A stretch of 32,000 nucleotides of DNA, taken from an archaeon. GTDB taxonomy: Archaea > Asgardarchaeota > Thorarchaeia > Thorarchaeales > Thorarchaeaceae. Every line of letters starts with the position of its first letter. Positions within the stretch are counted from its first letter, which is position 1. Of the stretch, positions 2,861-31,289 are shown in pieces. The position numbers and the translations under genes are program-made. The DNA is taken from positions 1-32,000 of the forward strand of contig JAJRZD010000033.1 of the NCBI GenBank assembly GCA_024275415.1, read 5' to 3'. The notes beneath the pieces are model-generated. The model worked only from the letters and a program-made list of their open reading frames with translations, did not search any database and was not told the DNA's origin.

Positions 2861-3430
2861 GTGAATACTTTGGTCGAGCTTCCTGAGATTATTATCAAGA
2901 CACGCAAACTTCTCACTCTGAGAAGTTACGAGGTTAATGAGCTATTGGAATATGAGAATCGCTGGGTGATGTTTCCTACAAGAAAAGTAAAGGACATGAT
3001 TGTGAAAAAGGTGGTCTGGATATTCAAGGAGCCGAAAGTCGTCGGTGTTGCACTGATTCGTGACCTCGTACGGGCAATGGAAGAGAACGAAGCTCAGGAA
3101 GGTATGCTCGTTGGGGGGATCAGATTCACGCCAGCGGCCAAGAAGCAGGCTCGCCAATCAAGAGTCGAGCTTGTTGAAGGTGGTTATGCATCATTCGACC
3201 TTTTTGGGCACGAGCTTGTTCCTATGCATGTCATTGCTTCAGAGGATGAAGTATCAATGGTACTGGATCACTATGGGATAAAGAAGACACAGCTTCCAAG
3301 GATTGCACGAGAGGATCCCGCTGCACGTGTCTTGGGTGCAAGAATTGGGCAAGTCTTACGTATAGAGCGAGATAGCCAGACCGCAGGAAAGGTCTACTAT
3401 TACAGGCTGGTCGTCGATCCAGGGCGCTAA
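2861..3430 (+). CDS. rpo5: DNA-directed RNA polymerase subunit Rpo5 (RpoH), long form with an RPB5-like N-terminal domain
   Basis: C-terminal HELVPMH...LPRIAREDPAARVLGARIGQVLRIERDSQTAGKVYYYRLVV is the Rpo5/RPB5 signature. A ~110 aa N-terminal extension carries VVGVALIRDL...GMLV...FTPAAKK. GTG start. Confidence 0.95.
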   Translation: MNTLVELPEIIIKTRKLLTLRSYEVNELLEYENRWVMFPTRKVKDMIVKKVVWIFKEPKVVGVALIRDLVRAMEENEAQEGMLVGGIRFTPAAKKQARQSRVELVEGGYASFDLFGHELVPMHVIASEDEVSMVLDHYGIKKTQLPRIAREDPAARVLGARIGQVLRIERDSQTAGKVYYYRLVVDPGR

Positions 3431-4197
3431 AATACGACAATTCCTAACATGACTCCCAACAATAGCATAATGATACAGGTTGTATAAGGCAATAGGATAT
3501 TGTCTGTACCTTTTGGGCTGACCAGTTCGACCAGGGTAGCAGTCACACTGCCAACGAACGCCAAGATGAATATCTCGTTCCATAGGATTGTTCCGCTAGG
3601 AGCAAGTGTGCCATAGTTGAGGACTCCGAAGAACCAGAAGGCAAGCAGCGCTCCAAGAAACGAGAAGATAAACAGTGCTGCTGACCCATGTAGGCTTCTT
3701 TTAGACCCTAGGATTGTCCGTGTGTAGTTTTTGCCGTATTTCATGCCAACTGGTGCGGACATCCCGTCACCAAACATCATCATCTGGATTGCCGCTGCTG
3801 CTATGAAATAGATCTCGTTCAGTTGGAGGAATGTGAATATGCCTGTCAGAACCGTTATCGATACCGCATACCAGAATGGCCCCCTGACACTGCCATGCTC
3901 CAAGTCCTCGGGTCTGGCCATTGCTGAGAAGAATTTGCTAAAACGCTCATTGTTTGCCATGAGAAGGAAGACGGCAAATAGAAGCGCAACAACCGTCGCC
4001 CACCACGAGTGTGTATAGTAGGGAACAGTCCATATGGCTAGACCCGCGAAAAGGTGTACAATCTTTCTTGTGAAGTCGGATCCCATGTTGAGCTTTCTTC
4101 TTGCCACATCGGCAATGGTCAGAACGAGGACCGCATAGATCACCGCGATGAGGAACACTATAATATCGATTGGTGTCAGGAGAAGGTTCAGTTGCAT
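3427..4197 (-). CDS. Polyprenol kinase of the phytol kinase VTE5 / dolichol kinase Sec59 (CTP_transf_1) family
   Basis: Membrane protein with FTRKIVH, GDGMSAPVG, SKRSLHGS and VEL.SPKGTDNILLP motifs. Confidence 0.85.
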   Translation of the reverse strand: MQLNLLLTPIDIIVFLIAVIYAVLVLTIADVARRKLNMGSDFTRKIVHLFAGLAIWTVPYYTHSWWATVVALLFAVFLLMANNERFSKFFSAMARPEDLEHGSVRGPFWYAVSITVLTGIFTFLQLNEIYFIAAAAIQMMMFGDGMSAPVGMKYGKNYTRTILGSKRSLHGSAALFIFSFLGALLAFWFFGVLNYGTLAPSGTILWNEIFILAFVGSVTATLVELVSPKGTDNILLPYTTCIIMLLLGVMLGIVVF

Positions 4198-4261: not shown

Positions 4262-5098
4262 TCAGGTTTTGACATCACGGATTCTGGCATGGGACACGCT
4301 TTGAAGGTTTTTGATGGCGTCCTTCACTTTCTGTTTGACCTCTTCTTCATCATCGCTTCTACAGGATACCCAGACTCTCATCACCCTTGTTGAACCATAC
4401 CTCTTGGGCAACGACTTGATCCAGATGCCTGGAAACTCGGTCATGACCTCATCAATGTACGGTGAGAATGTAGACTCATCGATGACCTCGAATTCTACAA
4501 TCTCTTGGTAGTACCTTCCAACGACATGATTCTTTAGCCACGGCTCAACGCTGCTCTTCCAGATGTCCTTCAGTTCTGCCGGCACACCTGGCAGACAGAA
4601 GATTGTGCTCTTGCCCACCCTCAACATGACTCCTGGGGCTCCTCCAACTCTATTATCGAGGGGAACTGATCCCTTTGGTATGTGAGCCATTTTCCTTCTG
4701 GATTCAGTAAGGTCACCATTGGAGATGATACCCCTCTCATGAAGTAGTCTATATTGTCTTTCTACAATGGCCAACGCCTCTGGGTTTTCCTCAAGTTCCA
4801 ATCCAAGATGCGATGCGATAGCCTTCAGTGTCATATCATCATGGGTCGGACCCAGACCACCCGATGTAACAACCACATCGCAATGGTCAGTGAGGAAATC
4901 CAGCCCTGACCCTATTTCCTCTAACTCGTCACGAACAGAAACCACTCTTCGTACTTCGACCCCAAGTTCGACAAATCTCTGTTCCATCCAATTCGCATTC
5001 GTATCGAGGACAATGCCGTCTAATACCTCATTCCCGATTATCAGGATTCCTGCTTTCAGACTTGGTTGTTCCATTGAGATGGTCTCCCTGTCATTCAT
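4262..5098 (-). CDS. CinA-like molybdopterin-binding-domain protein without an NMN deamidase domain
   Basis: IGNEVLDG..LDTN, GGLGPTHDDMT and LPGVPAE motifs. Start uncertain (5110, 5098 or 5074); 5098 overlaps the HD gene stop. Confidence 0.88.
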   Translation of the reverse strand: MNDRETISMEQPSLKAGILIIGNEVLDGIVLDTNANWMEQRFVELGVEVRRVVSVRDELEEIGSGLDFLTDHCDVVVTSGGLGPTHDDMTLKAIASHLGLELEENPEALAIVERQYRLLHERGIISNGDLTESRRKMAHIPKGSVPLDNRVGGAPGVMLRVGKSTIFCLPGVPAELKDIWKSSVEPWLKNHVVGRYYQEIVEFEVIDESTFSPYIDEVMTEFPGIWIKSLPKRYGSTRVMRVWVSCRSDDEEEVKQKVKDAIKNLQSVSHARIRDVKT

Positions 5099-5732
5099 TT
5101 GGCTTTTCATACTCGAACATGGCTGACATAGCGCGCAGGTTGTTTAATCGCTCGTCTGCCATCTTGCGGGCTGGCTCAGTGTGCATACTTCGTGCAATAT
5201 CCTCAGCGAGAGGCAGGAAATCCTTAATGGTTCTTGCAATTGCGTCCAGTAACATTCCCGGCCTCATACGAATACCATTTATGATATAATGCACGAAGCC
5301 TGTCACTCCTAATTTCGTTAATTTGTCCGCCTCCCAAACCACCTGTGCCTCCAGTGGTTCCAATGGCGATTCCAGAGTCAATCCAACATGCTTCACTATC
5401 ACATCTGTCACTTTCTCGATGGTTTCATGTCTAATGCCATATGACTGCATGATGGTTCGTGCTATCTTTGCACTTTCTATCCCGTGATCTTTCACTCCCC
5501 CTAAACCTGGCTTCGCAATATCATGTAGCCAAGCCGATAGAATGATTATTTCCATGTCCGCTTCCAGACTCATCCCGATTCTCTTGGCTAATTCCACCAC
5601 TTGGCATACGTGGTCGTACCTATAGTCGAAGAGAGGCTCTTGCGAATCGCGTTGAGCACTGGTCCATTCTTCACGAGCAGCAATTCTAGTCTGTTCCCTG
5701 ACCACATGGGATAGAATGTCCTCTGGTATCAT
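5091..5732 (-). CDS. HD-domain metal-dependent phosphohydrolase
   Basis: YRYDHV...WLHDIAK...KHVG...EADKL. True start is probably ATG 5732; the 5840 extension overlaps tatD out of frame. Confidence 0.88.
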   Translation of the reverse strand: MIPEDILSHVVREQTRIAAREEWTSAQRDSQEPLFDYRYDHVCQVVELAKRIGMSLEADMEIIILSAWLHDIAKPGLGGVKDHGIESAKIARTIMQSYGIRHETIEKVTDVIVKHVGLTLESPLEPLEAQVVWEADKLTKLGVTGFVHYIINGIRMRPGMLLDAIARTIKDFLPLAEDIARSMHTEPARKMADERLNNLRAMSAMFEYEKPNE

Positions 5733-5766
5733 CTTGAGTGACCTGTGGGTCGGTTTGAGTATAAGA

Positions 5767-6534
5767 CTATCGTGATGAAGCAATGTTTCTGTACAGGTTG
5801 AGTGTGTTCTCAAGGATGATCTGCTGCATCTCCTCCTCATCCCTTCTTAGAATCCGGGCAATCTCTTTAATCGCAATAGGGAGATTTGAAGGCTCATTCC
5901 GAGTCCCTCTAACCGCGGAAAGCACTGGACTATCTGTTTCAACAAGGATTCTTTCGATATCAAGAGCTTTGACAAGCTTCTGTTTCTGAGGAGAACGAAC
6001 CACTGACGTGGGAATCGAGAAGTAGTAGTCTAACTCTCGCGATGCAACCCTCGCGAAACTCGCCCTCCCATCAAAGGCATGCATATGGACAGATGACGCA
6101 CCATTCTTCTCTAGTATCTCTAGGCATCTTTTTCCTGCTGATCGAGAGTGTATCTGTAGGGGGAGCCCAGTTTCGATTGCGAAATGAATCGCAGACACGA
6201 AATTCCTTTCCTGCAAGTTTCTCTGTGAATGATCCCGTTCGCGATAATAATCCAGCCCGACCTCTCCCACTGCAATAATTTCGCTTCGATGGGTTCGTAT
6301 GAAGTTTATCATTTCTCCAGTGAATTCACTTTGCATGGGGTCTAATCCTATTGATGCGTACACATTAGAGGCTGCTTTTGAGATGGATAGGGTTCTTTCC
6401 CAATCGCTTGGGGCTATCCCAGATGATATGCAGCAAATCCCACCTTCCTGCGCTCGCTGAATCACTTCATTAAGGTCTACTACAAAGTCATCCTGTTCAA
6501 GGTGGCAATGAGTGTCAATCATACACATGTTCAT
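5767..6534 (-). CDS. tatD: TatD family hydrolase/DNase
   Basis: DTHCHL, GEVGLDY, HSR, HAF and ETDSP motifs. Confidence 0.95.
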   Translation of the reverse strand: MNMCMIDTHCHLEQDDFVVDLNEVIQRAQEGGICCISSGIAPSDWERTLSISKAASNVYASIGLDPMQSEFTGEMINFIRTHRSEIIAVGEVGLDYYRERDHSQRNLQERNFVSAIHFAIETGLPLQIHSRSAGKRCLEILEKNGASSVHMHAFDGRASFARVASRELDYYFSIPTSVVRSPQKQKLVKALDIERILVETDSPVLSAVRGTRNEPSNLPIAIKEIARILRRDEEEMQQIILENTLNLYRNIASSR

Positions 6535-6686
6535 TGGTCAGACCTTTTCCTATTAAGATGGAATCTGCAATCCGAATGGGATAAGCCTATTGGTGCATTG
6601 GCAGTAACATTACAAAACCATTAATTAGACTCAAGATGCTTCTGCAACCTGTTCAGGTAACCACCTATTCGGGTCTTGATAAAACC

Positions 6687-7301
6687 ATGATTACAATTAT
6701 CGATTATGGTATGGGAAACTTGGGTTCGATACAAAACATGCTGAAGCGGATGAACTTTGAAGCTGAGATAACCTCTGATCTTGACCGTATCGTAGATGCC
6801 GAGAAGCTGATCCTCCCCGGAGTGGGGGCATTTGACCATGCTATGACGAGTCTGGATGAACGAGGAATGATTCCGCTGCTGAATGACTTGGTGGTGCGAA
6901 AGAAAGTACCTATCTTGGGCATTTGTCTTGGGATGCAACTTCTTTCAAAGAGAAGTGAGGAAGGTGAGCTTGAGGGCTTCGGATGGATTGATGCTGAAAC
7001 CATCCGTTTTAAGATCCCTCCAGATGCAGGACTTCGGATTCCCCACATGGGGTGGAATACCCTCATTATAAAGAAGGACTCTCCACTCTTCGAGGATATG
7101 TACGATGAACCCCGGTTCTATTTTGTTCATTCGTATCATGTATGTTGCGCTTCCGAACAGGATGTGTTGGCTGTAACAACTCATGGAATCGAGTTCACAT
7201 CTGCTGTGATGCATGACAACATATTTGGGTTGCAGTTCCACCCTGAAAAGAGCCACAAGTTTGGGATGAAGGTACTGAATAATTATGCGGAGCTAGTTTG
7301 A
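6687..7301 (+). CDS. hisH: Glutamine amidotransferase, HisH-like (glycan acetamidino type, AglY/WbuY-like)
   Basis: IIDYGMGN, LILPGVGAF, GICLGMQ (catalytic Cys), PHMGWN, YFVHSY and FHPEKS. Clustered with WbuX, so probably for glycan modification rather than histidine synthesis. Confidence 0.93.
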   Translation: MITIIDYGMGNLGSIQNMLKRMNFEAEITSDLDRIVDAEKLILPGVGAFDHAMTSLDERGMIPLLNDLVVRKKVPILGICLGMQLLSKRSEEGELEGFGWIDAETIRFKIPPDAGLRIPHMGWNTLIIKKDSPLFEDMYDEPRFYFVHSYHVCCASEQDVLAVTTHGIEFTSAVMHDNIFGLQFHPEKSHKFGMKVLNNYAELV

Positions 7302-8059
7302 TGCTTAGAACAAGAGTCATTCCCTGTCTTCTGTTAAAGGGCAGAGGACTTGTCAAGACGGTGAAGTTCCGAGATCCTGTCTATGTTGGAGACCCCATAA
7401 ACGCTGTACGGATATTCAACGATAAAGAGGTTGACGAACTCGTCTTCCTCGATATCACAGCAACTATCGAGAAACGTCCTCCCCAGTTCGATTTAATTGG
7501 TGACATTGCCACGGAGTGCTTCATGCCATTTGGCATTGGTGGTGGCATTCATGATATCGAAACAGCAAATAGGTTGCTTAAGATGGGCTCCGAGAAAGTC
7601 ATATTCAATTCAGCCGCTACTGATTTGAACCTGATACGCGAAGCAGCCAATCTTTTTGGCAGTCAAAGCGTTGTCGCATCGATAGACGTGAAACGGAGCA
7701 GATTTGGGAAATATCAAGTCTACACACACTCTGGACGAGTGAACACGAAGAAAGATCCTGTCGAATTCGCAAAGGAACTGGAAAGTGCTGGGGCAGGTGA
7801 GATATTCTTGAATTCTATCGATCGGGACGGCACAATGATTGGTTATGACATCCAATTGCTCAAGTCAGTGACAGAATCCATCAACATACCCGTTGTAGCC
7901 TGTGGAGGTGCAGGAAAGCTGGATGATTTTAGGGAAGCAGTAATAAATGGTGGAGCATCAGCTGTTGCAGCCGGGAGCATGTTCGTGTTTCATGGCCCCC
8001 ATAGAGCTGTATTAATTAACTATCCTACTCAAGAGCAACTCAAACAGTATCTCAACTAG
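7301..8059 (+). CDS. hisF: AglZ/HisF2 family cyclase-like subunit for acetamidino modification
   Basis: RVIPCLLL..GLVKTVKF..P.YVGDPINAVRIFN.KEVDEL and SIDRDGT..GYD. The C-terminal GSMFVFHGPHRAVLINYP is typical of the glycan-associated HisF2. Start overlaps the hisH stop. Confidence 0.93.
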   Translation: MLRTRVIPCLLLKGRGLVKTVKFRDPVYVGDPINAVRIFNDKEVDELVFLDITATIEKRPPQFDLIGDIATECFMPFGIGGGIHDIETANRLLKMGSEKVIFNSAATDLNLIREAANLFGSQSVVASIDVKRSRFGKYQVYTHSGRVNTKKDPVEFAKELESAGAGEIFLNSIDRDGTMIGYDIQLLKSVTESINIPVVACGGAGKLDDFREAVINGGASAVAAGSMFVFHGPHRAVLINYPTQEQLKQYLN

Positions 8060-8075
8060 CACACGAGGGAAGAAA

Positions 8076-9167
8076 TTGACTCAGGAATATCAGATGTGCA
8101 AACGATGCGTAATGGACACTACAGATCCAAAAATACAATTCGATGAGAACGGTATTTGCAATCATTGCACTAACTATCTAGCGCGAGCTGAGAAGGTACT
8201 CTTACCTCCTGAAAGACGAGAGGCGAAGTTGAAGGAATATATCAACAAGATAAAAGAATGGGGGAGAGGCAAAGAATACGACTGCATCGCCGGTGTTTCT
8301 GGGGGCGTTGATAGCACGTATATGGTGTATATTGCAAAAGAGCTGGGTCTTCGACCCCTTGCAGTCCATCTTGACAACGGATGGAATTCCAGACTGGCAG
8401 TTACCAATATTGAACGCGTGCTGAACCAGTTGGATGTCGACCTATACACCCACGTCATCGACTGGGAGGAATTCAAGGATATCCAAATGGCATATTTCAA
8501 GGCATCCGTTGTGGACATTGAGGTCGCATCTGACCACGCTATAGTAGCAATGATACACAATATAGCTGCTGATAGGAGAATCAAGTACATTCTAAGAGGT
8601 AGCAACTTCGCAACCGAAGGGATAATGCCAAGAAGCTGGGTCTGGGTCAAGAATGACCTTGCCAACCTCAAGGATATCCATCGCTACTATGGAACCCGGA
8701 AACTAAAGACATATCCTACCCTTGGGTTCCTGCGTCTTGTGTATCTGAGGAAAATCAGGGGCATAGAGCGATTCCCGTTATTGAACTACATTGACTACAA
8801 TCGGGATGAGGCAAAGAGGTTTCTCATCGAGGAACTTGGATGGGAAGATTATGGCGGGAAACATCACGAATCAATCTTCACCAAGTTCTATCAGAGTTAC
8901 ATCCTCCCAACAAAGTTCAACATCGACAAGAGGAAGGCACATCTTTCAACATTAATCTGTTCAGGACAGATAACGCGAGAAGACGCCCTCAAGCGCCTTG
9001 AAGAGCCTCTCTATGACGAGTCCGAGCTTAAGAGAGATACCGAGTACGTGCTGAAAAAGTTCGGTTGGACTGAAGAAGAGTTCCGAGAGATAATGAATCT
9101 GCCAATAAGGCAGCATGATGAATTCAAAACCGATGTATGGATAAGGAAATTCTTAGGTTCTGGATGA
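8076..9167 (+). CDS. N-acetyl sugar amidotransferase (WbuX/AglX/PseA family)
   Basis: CKRCVMDT...CNHC, PP-loop SGGVDS, HLDNGWNS and YGGKHHES. TTG start with GAGGG upstream. Confidence 0.93.
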   Translation: MTQEYQMCKRCVMDTTDPKIQFDENGICNHCTNYLARAEKVLLPPERREAKLKEYINKIKEWGRGKEYDCIAGVSGGVDSTYMVYIAKELGLRPLAVHLDNGWNSRLAVTNIERVLNQLDVDLYTHVIDWEEFKDIQMAYFKASVVDIEVASDHAIVAMIHNIAADRRIKYILRGSNFATEGIMPRSWVWVKNDLANLKDIHRYYGTRKLKTYPTLGFLRLVYLRKIRGIERFPLLNYIDYNRDEAKRFLIEELGWEDYGGKHHESIFTKFYQSYILPTKFNIDKRKAHLSTLICSGQITREDALKRLEEPLYDESELKRDTEYVLKKFGWTEEEFREIMNLPIRQHDEFKTDVWIRKFLGSG

Positions 9168-16886: not shown

Positions 16887-18323
16887 CTAGGTGTGTTTCT
16901 CTTTTGAGATATGCGATTCTCTTATGCGCTGGATTTCAGAAATCATGTTCTCAATGGCGTTACTCTTGAAGAGGAACCCTGTATCGAATGTTTCTCTTGA
17001 CTTGTTATCTGACAGCTTACCAATCAAGTCTTCTGGACTTTTGACGCTTTCCACAAATCCTTCTTGTATTATGTGGTTCATTATCTCAGCACCCTTGATG
17101 TCAACAATAAAAGTTCGTAACCCAAATGCTAATCCCTCATATAGGGCGGTCGAACCAACACCCACAATAACCTTGGACTTGGAAAATAGTTCGTATAATG
17201 ATGCATCCAATCTGTCGATGACATTGATATCTGTGTGAAGCAACCAAGGATATTTCTCCTGCCATCCGTGTACTTCTTGTGGATGCAACTTGTACAATAT
17301 CTCGTGATCCAAATCTAGCTGAGTACTTAATTTGGCTGCAAACTTAGATAGATCCTCACCTATGGTGTCTTGAGAGATAAACAAAATATAATCACCATCT
17401 CCATGTTTTCTGAATTCCTCTTTCTGCATTTCCAGATATGGGAATCCCACCGATATTATTCGTGACTCATCAACTGGGAAATCAGCAACGGTTCTCCAGT
17501 AGTCGCCCCAGACAAAGAGATAGTCTGCAAAAGATTTTTTCGTTCCATTAGGGAAAGAATAACCAACATGGTATGGTGATATCACTCCATGTTGGAGTTC
17601 TATGGTGACCACACCCAATTTTTTGCAGGCCTCTATGAGATCCTCCCATCCATATCCTTGCGTCAAAATCACGATTTCTGGCTCAATCTTCATAAGAAGT
17701 TTCAAGAACAGCGGCAGTCGGGCCTTTCTTTCCTGTAGCGTCCGTTTTGTCATAGATATGAGGTTAACCGAAACACCAAAGGTCGATTTCAGAATGGTTC
17801 TTATCTCCTCAAGTTTACCATATTCCTCCTCTGTGAGTTTGATTTTGACCCGTCTTAGAATTCGTTTCAGATAGGTTCTCATTTCGATGAAGTCGAAATA
17901 TCGGAGGTTTTTTGTCTTTGCGGGAGAATAATGCTTGTTATCGAAATGGGATTCTATTGCTATAATACTATCCTGCATCCGATCGATTAGGAGGTCTGAA
18001 TAAATGTCCCACCACACACCACCTTGAAACTTTCTTCTCGCACTACTGATTACAATGATTGATGATTTAGGAGATAGAAAGGGGTTTTTTGATACTCGGA
18101 ATACGGATAGCATCAACCGTTTTATCCGCGACCCATTGCTTTTTTTTCCCCCATGACTACTGTCTGTGGTTGTACCTTCCCTGATAATTTTTGAATATAC
18201 TTGGAAACGCACTCGTTCCCAGAACAGGACATCCTGGATTTTGAGGTTGAACAAATCGTGTTGCCTTTCAATTTGCGAAAGCATCTCGTAAACTTCTACC
18301 CAGTCCATTGCTTCGGCCTTCAT
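16887..18323 (-). CDS. Putative GT-B glycosyltransferase, candidate nonulosonic acid transferase
   Basis: ELQHGVI, YLFVWGDYW, VGFPYL, FISQ, YKLHPQE and STALYEGLAFG resemble capsule/TagF-like and sialyltransferase-like folds. Located within the neu cluster. Start uncertain (18368, 18323 or 18308). Confidence 0.65.
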   Translation of the reverse strand: MKAEAMDWVEVYEMLSQIERQHDLFNLKIQDVLFWERVRFQVYSKIIREGTTTDSSHGGKKSNGSRIKRLMLSVFRVSKNPFLSPKSSIIVISSARRKFQGGVWWDIYSDLLIDRMQDSIIAIESHFDNKHYSPAKTKNLRYFDFIEMRTYLKRILRRVKIKLTEEEYGKLEEIRTILKSTFGVSVNLISMTKRTLQERKARLPLFLKLLMKIEPEIVILTQGYGWEDLIEACKKLGVVTIELQHGVISPYHVGYSFPNGTKKSFADYLFVWGDYWRTVADFPVDESRIISVGFPYLEMQKEEFRKHGDGDYILFISQDTIGEDLSKFAAKLSTQLDLDHEILYKLHPQEVHGWQEKYPWLLHTDINVIDRLDASLYELFSKSKVIVGVGSTALYEGLAFGLRTFIVDIKGAEIMNHIIQEGFVESVKSPEDLIGKLSDNKSRETFDTGFLFKSNAIENMISEIQRIRESHISKEKHT

Positions 18324-18671
18324 TATTGTTTTTGGATAAAGTGTGCAGGATTGTCCGGAATATCTCATAACTCCTTTTATTTTGTTGCCAATGCAAGGCT
18401 CTTGTGAAAAACCAGCTATAAGTTTCTGTTTGAAATCCGCATGAATGACTGCGTGTCAGAATTCCAACACCTCGGTTCTTACCACAATCAATCTTATGAC
18501 ATCCGGTTGGTTTTTTCACACATCTTCGCAATGCAATATGTCAATGATTGGCACTTCTCAGAAATGATGGGGTTTTTGACTTACACATTGTCTGTGTGCT
18601 TGTTCATTGCCGGATAGATTAAATATGGTGACCAAGGACTTCAATTTGCTTATTCCACGAGGGTCTACTCA

Positions 18672-19724
18672 ATGGGTATAAAGAAGTTCATCATGAAACA
18701 GTATTGGCGTATTGGCACTATAAGAGCACTGCTAAGCCTTGCTCTTGCAATGTTGGTCATTGGTCGTCTTTACTATCAGTTCATCCCAGGGCTTAAAGAC
18801 ATGGGCATGTATGGTGCATTAATACTGGGCACGTTTCTAGTCTTTATTTTCATGGGAATCGGCTGGGCATATGATGTCAAGGCAAAGATGTGGAGTCAGA
18901 AGGAACAAGCTATCACCGAACGCAATGCATACTCTTACATACCAAGTTATTGGGAAATTGTGGTACACTATGCAATCTATCGTTCAATGGTACGCACGTT
19001 CAAGCAGATTCTGTCCAAGAACGGACTTGATAGTGACTACCTAGATGACGCACAACGATATCTGGATGGATACTTTGGACGCAAGCTCACACGTGAGGAT
19101 ATTTTTTCATCTTTGTCTGCCGGACTTGCATTCTGTCAAAAACATCCTTTTTCAACAACAACATCTCAGGAACAAAAGAGAGTTCCGATAAGGAGTAGAA
19201 TAAAGCTTGGTTTTCAGGTCATGATGCTTCGACTTAACTGGATTCAATCTCTGACAGGATTGGTTCAAGAGGTGTTGGTCTTTGGAACTTTCTTTATCGC
19301 GTTAATCTATTTACAGGGTAAAGAGGTTGTTGATGAAATCCTGCCCTTTGATATTCTAGTAATTGGTTTCTTTCTAGTGTCAATTCCCTTGTTTGCTGTG
19401 TTGGTTTCTTTAGGATGGCTCTATGACAGGAAGTTCAAGATTTGGGCCCCTGATTTCGTGGTTAGAATCGAACGGAACCCGTATACGTATCTGGCTGAAC
19501 CAAAATTACACGTAATGTACTTTCCCTTCTATTTCGCCCTTCTTCAAACTATGAAAAAGATATTCATTTCCCATCAAATGGATGTGACCGAGTTGGATCG
19601 GATACAGCAGTTTCTTGGCTCTTACCAGAACTTAGATGTAGCCAAAGATGAACACATGATAATCGCTAAAGAGTTACGGAAAACTTACGGAGAATTATTT
19701 GGTAATCAAAAGCGGGGGCATTGA
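18672..19724 (+). CDS. Hypothetical membrane protein made of two tandem copies of a ~170 aa module
   Basis: Both halves have about two hydrophobic segments followed by G[WY]xYDx5Wx8ERN[AP]YxY. Confidence 0.85.
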   Translation: MGIKKFIMKQYWRIGTIRALLSLALAMLVIGRLYYQFIPGLKDMGMYGALILGTFLVFIFMGIGWAYDVKAKMWSQKEQAITERNAYSYIPSYWEIVVHYAIYRSMVRTFKQILSKNGLDSDYLDDAQRYLDGYFGRKLTREDIFSSLSAGLAFCQKHPFSTTTSQEQKRVPIRSRIKLGFQVMMLRLNWIQSLTGLVQEVLVFGTFFIALIYLQGKEVVDEILPFDILVIGFFLVSIPLFAVLVSLGWLYDRKFKIWAPDFVVRIERNPYTYLAEPKLHVMYFPFYFALLQTMKKIFISHQMDVTELDRIQQFLGSYQNLDVAKDEHMIIAKELRKTYGELFGNQKRGH

Positions 19725-19728
19725 ATAG

Positions 19729-20238
19729 ATGCGAATAAGAAAGTGGTTTATGAAACAACAATGGCGGATTGTACAGATCCGTGGAATCTGGGGATTGTTC
19801 TATGGCATATTCCTTTTGGCTTATGCATATTTCGAATACATCCCAATATTTGCAGGTCTTGGCATGTGGGGCCCTGTCGTGTTCTCGGGAGTGCTTTTAG
19901 TTGTGTTTCTAATACTGGGTTATTTGTACGACCGAGTATTTGTCCTCTGGGCCCCATCACAAGAGGTTGTGATTGAACGTAACCCATATCAGTACGTGCC
20001 TAGTCCAAAAGAGCATATATTCTGGTTTCCTCTTTATTCCAGTCTTTTAGACAGTATAGAGAAACTTGCAATGGAGTATGGCATTGACACATCTGACATT
20101 CAAGAAACAAAGGAATATTATGCGGAAATACAGAAACTTCGGCCTGATATACCTGATGATTTAGAACGGGCTGTGGAGCTAAGGAACGACTTCGTTTCAA
20201 AGCACCGGTATTGGAATGGGAACGCTCAAGACAACTGA
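19729..20238 (+). CDS. Hypothetical membrane protein, single-module paralogue of the upstream gene
   Basis: Aligns without gaps to the first half of 18672-19724 (MxIxKxxMKQxWRIxxIR...GYLYD...ERNPYQY). 4-bp gap from the upstream gene. Confidence 0.85.
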   Translation: MRIRKWFMKQQWRIVQIRGIWGLFYGIFLLAYAYFEYIPIFAGLGMWGPVVFSGVLLVVFLILGYLYDRVFVLWAPSQEVVIERNPYQYVPSPKEHIFWFPLYSSLLDSIEKLAMEYGIDTSDIQETKEYYAEIQKLRPDIPDDLERAVELRNDFVSKHRYWNGNAQDN

Positions 20239-27721: not shown

Positions 27722-29293
27722 TCAAATCAAGCCCGCCTTCTGTGCAAATCTCCGGTATCCTTTCATGAGCAGCTTGACGATGTTCCGTCTGAGGTTGAAC
27801 TTTATCCATTCCTCATCAGTTGGCTCCTTGAAGAACAATCCGAACTGCGCTGCATACTCGTCCTCTGACTTCTGAGATATCAACCTCTCCACAGCCTTGG
27901 GAGAAAACGTCAACTCTACATCAGGATTTTCTCCACGGATCGGGTTCACCTCTATTCTGCCTTTTCCCAAGACCAGAACATGGAACCTGTCATCCCCGAT
28001 GATATAATCAATCAGTGCATCTCTCTTCAGGCCATCGAAGATAAGTGGATGATCCACCAGATACCTCATGAATCTCTCTTTCAATGGATTTTTTTCTTCT
28101 TGTCTTGGTTTCTTTGACTCTTTAATGAAAGGCAAAAGGAACGATGGTAGGTCTTGAACGGTAAGACCTGTTTCCACAAGAGGTAGTCCATCTCCAAGAC
28201 CCTTGTGACAGAACGGACATGCAGTGAGGAGAACCTCGGCCCCTGTTTCTGTTGCCTCTGTAATTCGGTCTGCTGAAATCTGGTTGGCGAGGTCACCAAA
28301 CGTGCCCTTCAATCCGCCTCCGCTTCCGCAGCAGTGGGCATACCGTCTGTTCGTCATCATTTCCACAAGCTCGACATTGCCTACAGCTTGGATGACTCTT
28401 CTGGGTGCTTCGTAGACCTCAGCGTGCCTGCCTAGATGACAAGGGTCATGATATGTTACCACCAGTCGTTTTGGCGATTCGAAAGACACTTTCCCGTCAC
28501 GAACCAGATTGTCTAAGAACTCTGTGACATGGAGGAGCTTGAAAGGCAGTTCGATGTTCTGCTCAGCAGTATCTATCTTCATCGTCCTGAAGCATCCCGC
28601 ACACGCAGTGATGACTGCTCTGGCACCTGTCTTCTTTATCGCATCGATATTGTCGTTCGTAATCCCAACAAATGCATCAGTGTGTCCTAGTCGCAAGAGA
28701 ACAGACCCACAACATTTCTCCTCTGGGAGGATGGTATAGTCGATTCCAATCTTATCAAGGAGTGCCACAGTGTCTTGTGCGATCTGCTTCTCGCGATACG
28801 AACTGGTACACCCAACGAAGTACACATATTCGGCGGTTTCAGGCCACACTCTATCGTCAAAGAGATCTTTCCTCATTGATGCCGGTTCATTGTACGGGTT
28901 GTTCTCCGTCTTGATGGAACTCTCGATGGCATTGTGCTTTTCTAACGAATGCCCACTTTCGAAGAGGTCTCTCCGCAACGCCTCTATCATATCAGGCAAT
29001 CGTATCCCGTCTGCTGTTGCAGTGCAAGTTTCCTGACAGTTCTTGCAAGTCGTACAACTATACGCCCAATCAATGACACTATCGTCAATATCTAGCTCGC
29101 CTTGCAACAAGTCGTTCATTACCATGACCCTCCCACGGGAGGCATAGGTCTCGAACCCTAGAACATTCTTGACTGCACAAGGATGAAAGACATCCCGATT
29201 TGATGCCACGATTTTGTCAGCTAAGGAGCAGTCACCACAACGGGCGCATAGCCATAGATCATCGCTGAATCTTGAAAGATGCCTGAATTCCAT
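27722..29293 (-). CDS. CCG-domain Fe-S protein (GlpC/HdrD/GlcF-like) with an extra C-terminal SCP2-like domain
   Basis: CARCGDC..PC and CTTCKNCQETC clusters, plus two CCG domains (YFVGC...EKCCG...TACAGC and YHDPCHLGR...CCGSGGG...TACPFC). About 125 aa extra C-terminus. Confidence 0.9.
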   Translation of the reverse strand: MEFRHLSRFSDDLWLCARCGDCSLADKIVASNRDVFHPCAVKNVLGFETYASRGRVMVMNDLLQGELDIDDSVIDWAYSCTTCKNCQETCTATADGIRLPDMIEALRRDLFESGHSLEKHNAIESSIKTENNPYNEPASMRKDLFDDRVWPETAEYVYFVGCTSSYREKQIAQDTVALLDKIGIDYTILPEEKCCGSVLLRLGHTDAFVGITNDNIDAIKKTGARAVITACAGCFRTMKIDTAEQNIELPFKLLHVTEFLDNLVRDGKVSFESPKRLVVTYHDPCHLGRHAEVYEAPRRVIQAVGNVELVEMMTNRRYAHCCGSGGGLKGTFGDLANQISADRITEATETGAEVLLTACPFCHKGLGDGLPLVETGLTVQDLPSFLLPFIKESKKPRQEEKNPLKERFMRYLVDHPLIFDGLKRDALIDYIIGDDRFHVLVLGKGRIEVNPIRGENPDVELTFSPKAVERLISQKSEDEYAAQFGLFFKEPTDEEWIKFNLRRNIVKLLMKGYRRFAQKAGLI

Positions 29294-30694
29294 CTATTCT
29301 ACCCCCTTAAACACACCTGGTGCAAAGATGTTGTCCGGATCCAATGCGTTCTTTATCTTCCTGTAGGTTTCAAGGAAGACCTTGTTGGTTCTCTCCAATA
29401 CGCGGTTCTCCCAGAGTAGTCCACTCCAATAAGGACAGCCGCCAGTTTCAAGAATGGCGTCGAGAAGCTCGTTCCACGCTGTCATGGCAAGATCCATCTT
29501 GTCCGGTGTTGGGGCAAATATCGTTATCCACCCTGTGGCATATGTCCGTTCGGCACCAAGGCAGCTTGCAATCCACTTTATCCCATTTTTGAGGAGCTTG
29601 TGCTTGTCGAAGATGCTCCACGCTTTTTCCATCACATCGGGTATCCTCGAGATTGGCCGCAGGTGACATGTGTTCAGCCAGAATCCATTGTTGTACAGCG
29701 GCTGCACGAGGTTGAACAGCTCGCCCCAGTGCATCTGTGACGCAAAATTGCCTAGGTCTTTGCCTCCATGCTCAAGGGCAATCTCTCTTATGATCTCCAT
29801 CTTACGGGATGCCAATTCTTCGTCAATCTCTTGGACAATCGACGCGAACATAGCATTGATCTCAGGATGATTGTCAAGAAAACCTGGGAAGAACGTGTCA
29901 GTCGATTGTCTGTCGGCGAGGAGATTGAGCTCCTCTGTCAGTCCCCTTTTCTGCACCTCGTAAAATGCCTTTGTCGCATCCTCAAGTGTCCTGAAGCCGA
30001 AGTCCCCATAAGTGATGTGTTCCGCTTTCGGGTATATCTTGAGGGTAACCTTCGTCTTTATCCCCAGCGTGCCATGATCCCCGAGGAACACACCTGTGAG
30101 GTCGTTGTACGTGGAGTATCTCCCGAAGAGTTGCGCTGATGTGTTCCATCCCGTACCTGTCCTTATGACATCACCATTCGCCAAGACGACCTCAAGTGAA
30201 ACCGTGCCTTCGGTAGAGGGCCCGAATTTTGATGCCGCGTAGCCGATGCTGTTGATGCTGGTCGAGCCTCCTACAGTCCCAACATTCCCTCCGTACGGCC
30301 CTCTGAAACCTATCTTGTAGCCTTTCTCGTCTAACCTGTGGATTAGCTCTGCCCATCTCAATCCTGCTTCCACAGTTACGGTCATCGCATCTTCATCAAG
30401 TTCCACGACCTTGTCCATCTTCACCATATCGAGCATGACTGCACCCCTCTGCCTTGGCAAGCATGCCCCGCAGATGCCGTTTCGCCCCCCTGCTGCAATG
30501 ATTGGGGTTTTTGAGTTGCCGCACAACTTGACGATTGCTTGGACTTCCTCGACTGTTTCTGGCATCACAACGATACCCGGACGCTCGGCCGTAAGATGGC
30601 TTGCATCCATCCTGTACGAGGAGATTATGACCTTGTCATCACTGACTCGTTCTTTGCCTACAATCGCTACAATGTCGTCGTAGAGGGGATGCAT
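29294..30694 (-). CDS. FAD-binding oxidoreductase (GlcD / D-lactate dehydrogenase / alkyl-DHAP synthase superfamily)
   Basis: PGIVVMPETVEEV, TVTVEAG, TVGG, LEVVLANGDVI, GDHGTLGIKT and KNALDPDNIFAPG. True start is probably 30694 (or 30718/30724); the extension to 31162 is a shadow of alg14. Its stop abuts the Fe-S gene start. Confidence 0.92.
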   Translation of the reverse strand: MHPLYDDIVAIVGKERVSDDKVIISSYRMDASHLTAERPGIVVMPETVEEVQAIVKLCGNSKTPIIAAGGRNGICGACLPRQRGAVMLDMVKMDKVVELDEDAMTVTVEAGLRWAELIHRLDEKGYKIGFRGPYGGNVGTVGGSTSINSIGYAASKFGPSTEGTVSLEVVLANGDVIRTGTGWNTSAQLFGRYSTYNDLTGVFLGDHGTLGIKTKVTLKIYPKAEHITYGDFGFRTLEDATKAFYEVQKRGLTEELNLLADRQSTDTFFPGFLDNHPEINAMFASIVQEIDEELASRKMEIIREIALEHGGKDLGNFASQMHWGELFNLVQPLYNNGFWLNTCHLRPISRIPDVMEKAWSIFDKHKLLKNGIKWIASCLGAERTYATGWITIFAPTPDKMDLAMTAWNELLDAILETGGCPYWSGLLWENRVLERTNKVFLETYRKIKNALDPDNIFAPGVFKGVE

Positions 30695-30806
30695 CCCAGA
30701 GAAGGGTATAATGGTCATCTTCATCACACGACTGATTCTGGAACGTTCTCCCCTATAAGTAGGTAACTCTATATGTGGCATCCCTCGACTTTGCTTCCGA
30801 GCGAAG

Positions 30807-31289
30807 GTGACACGAATCGGGGTTGTTCTTGGCAGAGGCGGCCATACGGCACAGACATTCTCACTCGTTGACCTACTCGGTCGGAAATTCGAGTATCTGT
30901 ACTTTATCGGTCTTTTCGACAAGCTTACGCCCAAGAAGATCAGGATTCCCGGCAAGAAGCTGCTGATGATCACACCTCGTTTGCTGCCACAGGACTCAAA
31001 GGTCATGTCAGTCTTGCGTACTCTGTTCTCATTCATTCTTTCACTGACATATTTGCTCGTGTATAGACCTACTGTCATCGTTTCTTGTGGGACTGGGTTG
31101 ACTGTCCCAATATTCTTCGTTGCCCGGTTCTTGGGAATCCGTACGGTATTCATAGAGAGCATGTCACGTGTGGAAAGCCTGTCTCAGACTGGCAGGATCC
31201 TTTTGGGCAAGACCTCACTCTTCTTTGTCCAGTGGAAAGACCTCGCTGCACAGGTTCCTGGTGTGCTATACGGAGGACAGCTATTATGA
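30807..31289 (+). CDS. alg14: ALG14/PssD/Cps14F-like glycosyltransferase acceptor-binding subunit
   Basis: LGRGGHT, RPTVIVSCGTG, FIESMSRVESLSQTGRIL and FVQW. GTG start. Confidence 0.92.
   Translation: MTRIGVVLGRGGHTAQTFSLVDLLGRKFEYLYFIGLFDKLTPKKIRIPGKKLLMITPRLLPQDSKVMSVLRTLFSFILSLTYLLVYRPTVIVSCGTGLTVPIFFVARFLGIRTVFIESMSRVESLSQTGRILLGKTSLFFVQWKDLAAQVPGVLYGGQLL

Follow-up and report, generated by a model that had tools for sequence, protein, structure and literature searches.

A three-copy two-helix membrane module in a Thorarchaeotal surface-glycan island and its alternation with Wzx

In this study, we describe a pair of adjacent genes, P0001 and P0002, found in a stretch of 32,000 nucleotides from a Thorarchaeota-type Asgard archaeon (contig JAJRZD010000033.1, positions 1 to 32,000; the whole stretch is called the window below). 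The source genome comprises 3.5 Mb in 127 contigs and is 93% complete. P0001 carries two copies of a membrane module of about 170 amino acids and P0002 carries one; the genome has exactly these three copies and none outside this locus. The two genes are probably co-transcribed. The features of the pair are as follows.

18369-18671 (no strand): divergent intergenic region of 303 nt between the gene of a 493-aa protein (-) and the pair, read from the sequence
18672-19724 (+): two-module gene P0001, 350 aa, from open reading frame (ORF) and translation
18672-19187 (+): N-module of P0001, residues 1-172
18861-18932 (+): motif copy 1, P0001 G64-W-A-Y-D68-x5-W74-x8-E83-R-N-A-Y87, from translation and alignment
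19188-19721 (+): C-module of P0001, residues 173-350
19413-19484 (+): motif copy 2, GWLYD-x5-W-x8-ERNPY, P0001 residues 248-271, from a DNA pattern match
19729-20238 (+): single-module gene P0002, 169 aa, from ORF and translation, 4 nt 3′ of the P0001 gene
19918-19989 (+): motif copy 3, GYLYD-x5-W-x8-ERNPY, P0002 residues 64-87, from a DNA pattern match

A TATA-like TTAAATAT at 18619-18626, 46 nt 5′ of the ATG of the P0001 gene, may act as a promoter element.

The first-pass annotation of this DNA had proposed that two co-oriented adjacent genes contain three copies of one unit, with a motif of identical spacing and about two transmembrane (TM) segments in each. The ORFs, the homology and the motif all agree with this. 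Indeed, BLASTP aligns the N-half of P0001 with P0002 at an E-value of 8e-28, the C-half with P0002 at 4e-23 and the two halves with each other at 3e-15, which reveals the internal duplication, the three copies being 26-31% identical in pairs. All three carry G-[WY]-x-Y-D-x5-W-x8-E-R-N-[AP]-Y with the same spacing, as read from the translations and the alignment. A degenerate DNA pattern of the motif matches copies 2 and 3, with a chance expectation of 0 in 100 shuffles, and misses copy 1 because this copy has ERNAY instead of ERNPY. Copies 1 and 3 were also said to align without gaps; this stands for the core, up to about residue 123, and fails for the C-terminal tail, to which the gaps are confined.

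Each module has two hydrophobic segments. Over 71 divergent members of the family, lysine plus arginine average 5.0 before the first TM segment (TM1), 1.0 in the inter-TM loop and 4.4 after the second (TM2); this loop averages 14.6 residues, and charged residues average 0.03-0.34 per TM segment. By the positive-inside rule, both termini of the module are predicted to be cytoplasmic (N-in/C-in), so that every polar residue conserved across the family (R13, Q16, D68, W74, E83, R84 and N85 in P0002 numbering) would sit at the cytoplasmic membrane face. Since the hairpins are uncharged and the conserved residues all lie at this interface, a pore lined by the YD and ERNPY residues, as the first-pass annotation imagined, is unlikely. 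The tail is the most variable part of the module in the family alignments.

The AlphaFold2 models of P0001 (predicted local distance difference test, pLDDT, 78; pTM 0.64) and P0002 (pLDDT 80) are all-helical. In the modelled order, a long N-terminal helix runs into TM1 and is followed by a short turn, TM2, a motif stretch of lower confidence and three cytoplasmic helices. Prediction of a P0001-P0002 complex with alignments scored 0.20 against a mark of 0.32. Fold searches with both models stayed at background: Foldseek against the PDB gave a best E-value of 1.8, the wide VIA-align search gave best Z-scores of 6.9 and 7.1, under its stated noise level for helical models, and every TM-score of the ESM Atlas shape search was below 0.5. 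The oligosaccharyltransferase subunits DAD1/Ost2, which appeared in the fold search at Z 6.3-6.5 with root-mean-square deviations of 5.9-7.8, were taken as noise.

Sequence searches were equally silent. P0001 and P0002 have no Pfam match at E-values up to 10 and no NCBIfam match, no Pfam family recurs among the 71 members scanned at E-values up to 1, and a profile search of PDB sequences returned nothing below an E-value of 0.3. All named homologues are annotated "hypothetical protein", and our literature search found no paper describing the family. The first reading, which did not recognise it, is thus borne out. Nonetheless, homologues are numerous. We found 65 homologues of P0001 (313-358 aa, 35-52% identity) in Thorarchaeota-type metagenome-assembled genomes (MAGs) and 153 of P0002, of which the 120 listed are 56-73% identical. 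An exhaustive profile search with a single-module alignment yielded 186 representative clusters, most of them single-module proteins of 150-220 aa, and across the family the N-terminal MKxxWRxQQ helix is conserved, as are the hairpin and the G[WYF]xYD...W...ERNPY motif. Searching species-representative genomes with a hand-made degenerate DNA pattern of this motif gave at least 120 loci, and 123 of 123 motif-bearing ORFs passed the hidden Markov model (HMM) of the family. Among the matches listed, the loci belong mostly to Poseidoniales (Marine Group II, MGII; Thermoplasmatota), and the others to Heimdallarchaeota, other Thermoplasmatota and Thorarchaeota; an ESM Atlas feature search also pointed to unnamed Thermoplasmatota clusters. 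The module is therefore a real and conserved family, widespread in archaea and with no described relative.

The first-pass annotation had suggested an HMM search for distribution, copy number and neighbourhood, which here revealed a wide archaeal family, mostly single-copy and set in glycan neighbourhoods. Poseidoniales, Heimdallarchaeota and other Asgard lineages have a single copy of the module. A quick maximum-likelihood tree separates the N, C and small modules of Thorarchaeota into three clades with supports of 99-100 in the Shimodaira-Hasegawa-like approximate likelihood ratio test, so the triplication appears to be old, with all paralogues kept, and on this tree would predate the divergence of the sampled Thorarchaeota. 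Such retention would fit an oligomer whose three positions are not equivalent, and which would be homo-oligomeric in lineages with a single gene; it points towards the pseudo-three-fold six-TM heteromer that the first-pass annotation proposed, for which it is the one available hint. Two members deserve mention for their setting. On a 3.0-Mb contig, a 321-aa member with an N-terminal extension of acidic tandem repeats (P0274, L020 10001-10966) lies near DegT and an ATP-grasp gene and adjoins a phage-type integrase and a DNA methylase, a setting from which the module may travel on mobile islands. A contig labelled as a Yoonia sp. MAG (L023) carries a typical Poseidoniaceae set (HerA-like, DegT, CYTH, beta-propeller, module) and is probably an archaeal contig mis-binned to a bacterium.

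In the window, the pair lies inside a variable surface-glycan island bordered by conserved genes:

3427-4197 (-): 256-aa protein with five predicted TM segments and no Pfam match, adjoining MoCF
4262-6534 (-): conserved flank of MoCF-biosynthesis-like, HD-domain and TatD-like genes, from BLAST labelling, with orthologues in 60 of the 86 genomes of the window's family
6636-27554 (no strand): variable surface-glycan island with the pair, from Pfam scans, with the same flanks and differing contents in relatives
6636-9167 (+): GATase, HisF-like and QueC-like trio beside the nonulosonate genes
16887-18368 (-): 493-aa soluble protein without Pfam family, divergent neighbour of the pair
27722-31162 (-): conserved flank of a CCG-domain iron-sulfur protein and an FAD-linked oxidase, with orthologues in 42 of the 86 genomes

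The left part of the island encodes GATase, HisF-like, QueC-like, CMP-synthetase, NeuB, 2-epimerase, DegT, PglD-like and PseB-like proteins, that is, a full nonulosonate set (NeuB, 2-epimerase, DegT, PglD-like, PseB-like and CMP-synthetase) upstream of the pair. The right part encodes a UDP-sugar dehydrogenase downstream of the pair, then PIG-L, WbqC, a sulfotransferase, GT4, GT2 and DUF2341. No polytopic membrane protein other than the pair is encoded inside the window's island. Pfam scans and a TM check of the island thus agree with two earlier remarks, the UDP-sugar dehydrogenase beside the pair and the missing flippase. The label of "candidate nonulosonate transferase" given to the 493-aa protein is unconfirmed, as this protein has no Pfam match. 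AglB is present in the window's genome.

The island occupies a fixed and hypervariable chromosomal site in Thorarchaeota, between Alg14/FAD-oxidase/CCG and TatD/HD/MoCF (window; L001, L003, L005, L143-L195), Alg14 lying beyond the CCG/FAD-oxidase flank in relatives. The smallest islands measure about 6 kb (G319, G333) and the largest about 25 kb (G332), with gene contents that shift even inside genera. In one genome (G384) both flanks are adjacent, and the module pair and glycan genes lie on another contig. ORFs of 254-257 aa with five predicted TM segments occupy the position of the 256-aa protein in most other Thorarchaeotal loci examined and belong to the conserved flank, not to the island. 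The GATase/HisF-like/QueC-like trio recurs in L003, L144, L146 and L148, and we take it to resemble the amidotransferase sets that make acetamidino sugars. The 493-aa protein belongs to a soluble family of about 460-490 aa without Pfam match (L001 10521-11921; L003 3402-4835; L186, L190), which repeatedly adjoins the pair, and also Wzx in islands without the module, and may represent an undescribed type of glycosyltransferase.

In 34 module-bearing Asgard loci, the pair is always arranged as a gene of about 350 aa followed by a gene of about 170 aa in the same orientation. The pair is constant and the neighbours vary, including sulfotransferases, NeuB sets, TagF-like proteins with a nucleotidyltransferase, UDP-sugar dehydrogenase, CapK and GT4. 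Such constancy amid changing neighbours is the behaviour expected of structure-independent machinery. In one genome (G344, L143 8392-9153), a membrane protein of the TauE/SafE family (sulfite-exporter type) lies directly 3′ of the pair and a sulfotransferase directly 5′.

Islands with and without the pair were compared over the 86 genomes of the window's family, across which the two island flanks were located and module-negative islands were fetched. The module is patchy, being present in 27 of the 85 other genomes and in none of six congeners. With a profile of the island Wzx, the DISCRIMINATING result over the 86 genomes was 28 with the module, 19 with an island Wzx, none with both and 39 with neither; among the genomes at least 90% complete the figures were 16, 13, 0 and 11. 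A naive Fisher test of this exclusion gives p = 2e-4, a value that is overstated since relatives are not independent. Both states occur inside genera g1, g10 and g11, therefore the switch happened repeatedly. Among the 12 module-negative islands with usable coverage, 10 encode a Wzx-type protein that has 10-12 predicted TM segments and was confirmed as Polysacc_synt/MatE, and the other two are minimal, of about 6 kb. Neither an HMM search at E-values up to 10 nor a relaxed six-frame motif scan found the module in the module-negative islands. Conversely, no island-type Wzx was found within about 10 kb in the 34 module-bearing loci, and no ORF with the ABC-ATPase signature (Walker A plus LSGGQ) within the same distance. 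In G335, Wzx directly adjoins UDPG_DH, the exact place of the pair in the window, and the neighbouring UDPG_DH/PIG-L/WbqC/sulfotransferase/GT4 block is collinear with that of the window at 55-68% identity.

At the scale of whole genomes, PF01943 matches average about 1.0 per module-bearing genome versus about 2.1 per genome with a Wzx island, and four module-bearing genomes that are 94-96% complete (G323, G356, G386, G388) have no match to PF01943, PF13440 or PF03023 at all. Module-bearing genomes thus do not compensate for the lost island Wzx. Altogether, islands come in two alternative types, one based on Wzx and one in which the pair behaves as the sugar-independent membrane component, and the exclusion and shared slot in 86 genomes give comparative backing to the first-pass argument from a missing flippase. 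A second polytopic protein without Pfam family is often found in the Wzx islands, with either 438-447 aa and 7-8 predicted TM segments or 573-586 aa and 12 (L186 12099-13418; L178 4328-5671; L190 14785-16101; L180 10032-11753; L185 5461-7221); these proteins are possibly Wzy-like polymerases or ligases.

Across the family, the module almost always lies among surface-glycan genes, a point that the first-pass annotation had put forward for checking, and its tie to glycan assembly extends to two phyla at least. The Poseidoniales contexts are also of glycan type, with DegT, GT4, a GFO/IDH oxidoreductase, a NeuB/CMP-synthetase/HAD set and MBOAT. In about 25-30 loci of the MGIIb type, the module belongs to a lineage-specific cassette in the order Sulfotransfer_3>, module>, CysQ-like>, Sulfotransfer_1<, CysD>, CysN/C> (arrowheads give orientation). 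This cassette is inserted between ribosomal protein L18Ae and prefoldin/FtsY (L031, L052, L071, L076, L089, L102, L105, L112, L119, L125, L128 and others), and its cysDNC looks dedicated to providing 3′-phosphoadenosine 5′-phosphosulfate (PAPS) for the sulfotransferases, not to sulfur assimilation. The cysDNC of MGIIb was previously discussed as sulfur assimilation, in a study that reports MGIIa without cysDNC and no known sulfate transporters for MGIIa (PMC6864105). In agreement with that study, among five module-bearing Poseidoniaceae genomes a real adenosine 5′-phosphosulfate (APS) kinase is absent from four and the PF13469 sulfotransferase from all five. In Thorarchaeota, PF13469 occurs in 14 of 28 module-bearing genomes versus about 12 of 58 without the module, and in at least nine genomes it is encoded no more than a few kb from the pair. 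The link between module and sulfation is real and not obligate.

From these data, we tentatively favour the reading that the pair is a component of, or is essential for, a Wzx-independent translocation of lipid-linked glycans. We infer that P0001 and P0002 would form a hetero-oligomeric membrane complex of three non-equivalent two-TM hairpins, that is, six TM helices per 1:1 pair, whereas single-copy family members would be homo-oligomeric; the three retained paralogue clades and the 4-nt gap between the genes would fit an obligate hetero-oligomer. In such a complex, the basic amphipathic N-helix with its invariant arginine and the juxtamembrane YD...W...ERNPY stretch would line up at the cytoplasmic membrane face, followed by the variable three-helix cytoplasmic tail. 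In a surface-glycan pathway that works without Wzx, the complex would provide the membrane step that does not depend on the sugar. Most likely, this step would move the finished glycan on its dolichol-phosphate carrier to the outer face, by flipping or scrambling, for use there by AglB or another transferase. On the cytoplasmic leaflet, the interfacial Arg, Asp, Glu, Asn and Trp residues might capture the anionic phosphate-sugar head group. A broader proposal, about which we are more doubtful, is that the family constitutes a new ATP-independent class of lipid-linked-glycan translocators made of three hairpins. Such a translocator would be a fused 2+1 hetero-trimer in Thorarchaeota and a homo-trimer in Poseidoniales, in Heimdallarchaeota and in further Asgard lineages, would replace Wzx in many archaea and would act by head-group binding and local bilayer perturbation, with no polar cavity.

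Several observations weigh against a role in translocation. The TM helices are essentially devoid of charged or conserved polar residues and offer no evident hydrophilic path through the membrane, unlike MOP and ABC flippases. Three or four Wzx-type genes lie on other contigs of the window's genome and might serve the island, which makes "no flippase in the locus" a weak argument when taken alone, and the ABC search covered the 34 loci, so that ABC-type flippases may be encoded elsewhere in the genomes. The exclusion itself must be read with care: the islands are allelic at one locus, therefore any two genes specific to an island type exclude each other, and exclusivity shows alternative pathway types, not equivalent function. 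Moreover, the genomes compared are related and count as non-independent observations, and a second Asgard family (f13) provided no informative replicate, as its module-negative genomes have solute-transport genes and no glycan island at that flank. Finally, six Poseidoniales loci have a single-module relative co-oriented with Wzx with one small gene between them; there, the module accompanies the flippase and does not replace it.

This coexistence with Wzx, together with the cytoplasmic position predicted for the helical tail and all the conserved polar residues, would also be explained if the module is a membrane scaffold or adaptor, its hairpin anchoring the three-helix domain and its motif recruiting soluble glycan-building or decorating enzymes to the lipid-linked acceptor, as DPM3 does for DPM1 or Alg14 for Alg13. 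The enzymes recruited would be sulfotransferases, nonulosonate transferases or glycerol-phosphate transferases, and flipping would be left to a translocator encoded elsewhere. The tail being the most variable part is expected if partners differ, the module gene leads soluble enzymes in the MGIIb-type cassette, and the proximity and enrichment of PF13469 in module-bearing Thorarchaeota point the same way. However, a scaffold leaves unexplained both the exclusion between pair and island Wzx and the four near-complete module-bearing genomes without a MOP flippase; the neighbours are too diverse for one partner, and no DPM3 or DPM2 match appears among the recurrent Pfam results of the family. We consider this explanation the main rival, yet on balance rather unlikely. 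An accessory role like that of Wzz, in which the module would be a chain-length, assembly or organising factor working with a translocator or polymerase, would also account for a small oligomeric hairpin protein in glycan loci and for the co-oriented order module, 94-aa gene, Wzx in the Poseidoniales loci mentioned above. Thorarchaeotal Wzx islands carry a possible polymerase, the second polytopic protein, and island types may differ in their assembly mode. Nevertheless, an inter-TM loop of about 15 residues leaves no room for an extracytoplasmic domain, the working part of Wzz, and module-bearing Thorarchaeotal islands encode no Wzy-like or Wzx-like partner, so that such a role appears improbable.

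The position of the module gene at the head of the MGIIb-type PAPS-synthesis cassette, the conserved arginines and the report of cysDNC in MGIIb and no known sulfate transporters for MGIIa (PMC6864105) could suggest that it supplies anions for glycan decoration, by sulfate uptake or by handling PAPS or 3′-phosphoadenosine 5′-phosphate. The phyletic data largely disfavour this and make it very improbable: a real APS kinase is missing from four of the five module-bearing Poseidoniaceae and PF13469 from all of them, half of the module-bearing Thorarchaeota also lack PF13469, many loci have no sulfation genes and the TM helices are uncharged. No Pfam match to the SulP, CysZ or TauE sulfate permeases was found either. 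On the same Poseidoniaceae evidence, we rejected a general role specific to sulfation. Two further candidates were discarded. A monotopic phosphoglycosyltransferase of the PglC type, raised by the interfacial Asp and Glu, has no PF02397 match in its favour, the cytoplasmic part is all-helical and variable, and the Wzx exclusion would go unexplained. A sugar-nucleotide transporter, one of the options of the first-pass annotation, was set aside on first principles: prokaryotes both produce and consume nucleotide sugars in the cytoplasm, and no such transport is needed.

What is new here is a broad archaeal family, the pair as a constant element of glycan islands and its alternation with Wzx in one slot. 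The first-pass interpretation is supported in part, in that the family is undescribed and, in several archaeal phyla, strongly linked with glycan loci. Rich glycan islands together with the pair, and no recognisable MOP flippase, are found in several near-complete Thorarchaeotal genomes. If the pair is a translocator, it would represent a new and very small flippase architecture, a compact system for the study of lipid scrambling, and would fill a gap in the cell-surface biology of Asgard archaea and of Marine Group II, the family being abundant in ocean archaea. If it is a scaffold, it would show how archaeal soluble sulfotransferases and nonulosonate or glycerol-phosphate transferases reach membrane-bound substrates. 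Either way, the family merits a name and a profile model, and the alternation of module and Wzx at one locus is a ready either/or natural experiment. Rft1, a MOP protein, is now supported as the eukaryotic scramblase (PMC11182771, PMC12714016), and no eukaryotic homologue of the module was found in our profile, homologue or motif searches; the significance of the family therefore lies in archaeal, not eukaryotic, glycobiology.

Among known systems, ABC-dependent export (Wzm/Wzt, PglK) has an ABC ATPase encoded with the membrane component, and no ORF with both Walker A and LSGGQ signatures was found in the 34 module-bearing loci. Wzz and other polysaccharide co-polymerases (PCP) are also two-TM oligomeric proteins encoded in surface-polysaccharide loci; nevertheless, they have a large helical domain outside the cell between the TM segments, whereas the loop of the module has about 10-15 residues and the rest is cytoplasmic. 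The only PCP row of the fold search (6rbg, Z 6.0, 55 residues) covered the TM hairpin alone. ArnE/ArnF, which form a heterodimer, and GtrA carry out an ATP-free translocation of polyprenyl-phosphate sugars. They resemble the module as small oligomerising membrane proteins of glycan-modification loci, but each of their subunits has four TM helices, and the families concerned, SMR/DMT-like or GtrA, gave no match in our Pfam scans. DPM3 and DPM2, subunits of the eukaryotic dolichol-phosphate-mannose synthase, also have two TM helices followed by a cytoplasmic helical segment, take part in a dolichol-linked glycan pathway and make an adaptor role plausible. Nonetheless, no homology was detected (no match of P0001 or P0002 to PF08285 or PF07297, neither of which recurs in the 71 members), and the module, at about double their length, carries an invariant motif not shared with them and is triplicated here; furthermore, it does not consistently lie beside a DPM1-like GT2, a GT2 being adjacent only in some loci. 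As for the Wzx/MOP flippases (PF01943, PF13440; relatives Rft1 and MurJ), there is no similarity of sequence, and none of fold above background: PF01943, PF13440, PF03023 and PF01554 have no match to P0001 or P0002 at E-values up to 10 and do not recur in the 71 members at E-values up to 1. The pair amounts to three two-TM hairpins as against 12-14 TM helices, and where MOP proteins have a charged central cavity, the module has no charged membrane residues and its conserved residues are predicted only at the cytoplasmic interface. Yet the likeness in genomic behaviour is close, since the pair occupies the same island slot as Wzx, alternates with it, does not depend on the island's sugar chemistry and has no ATPase partner.

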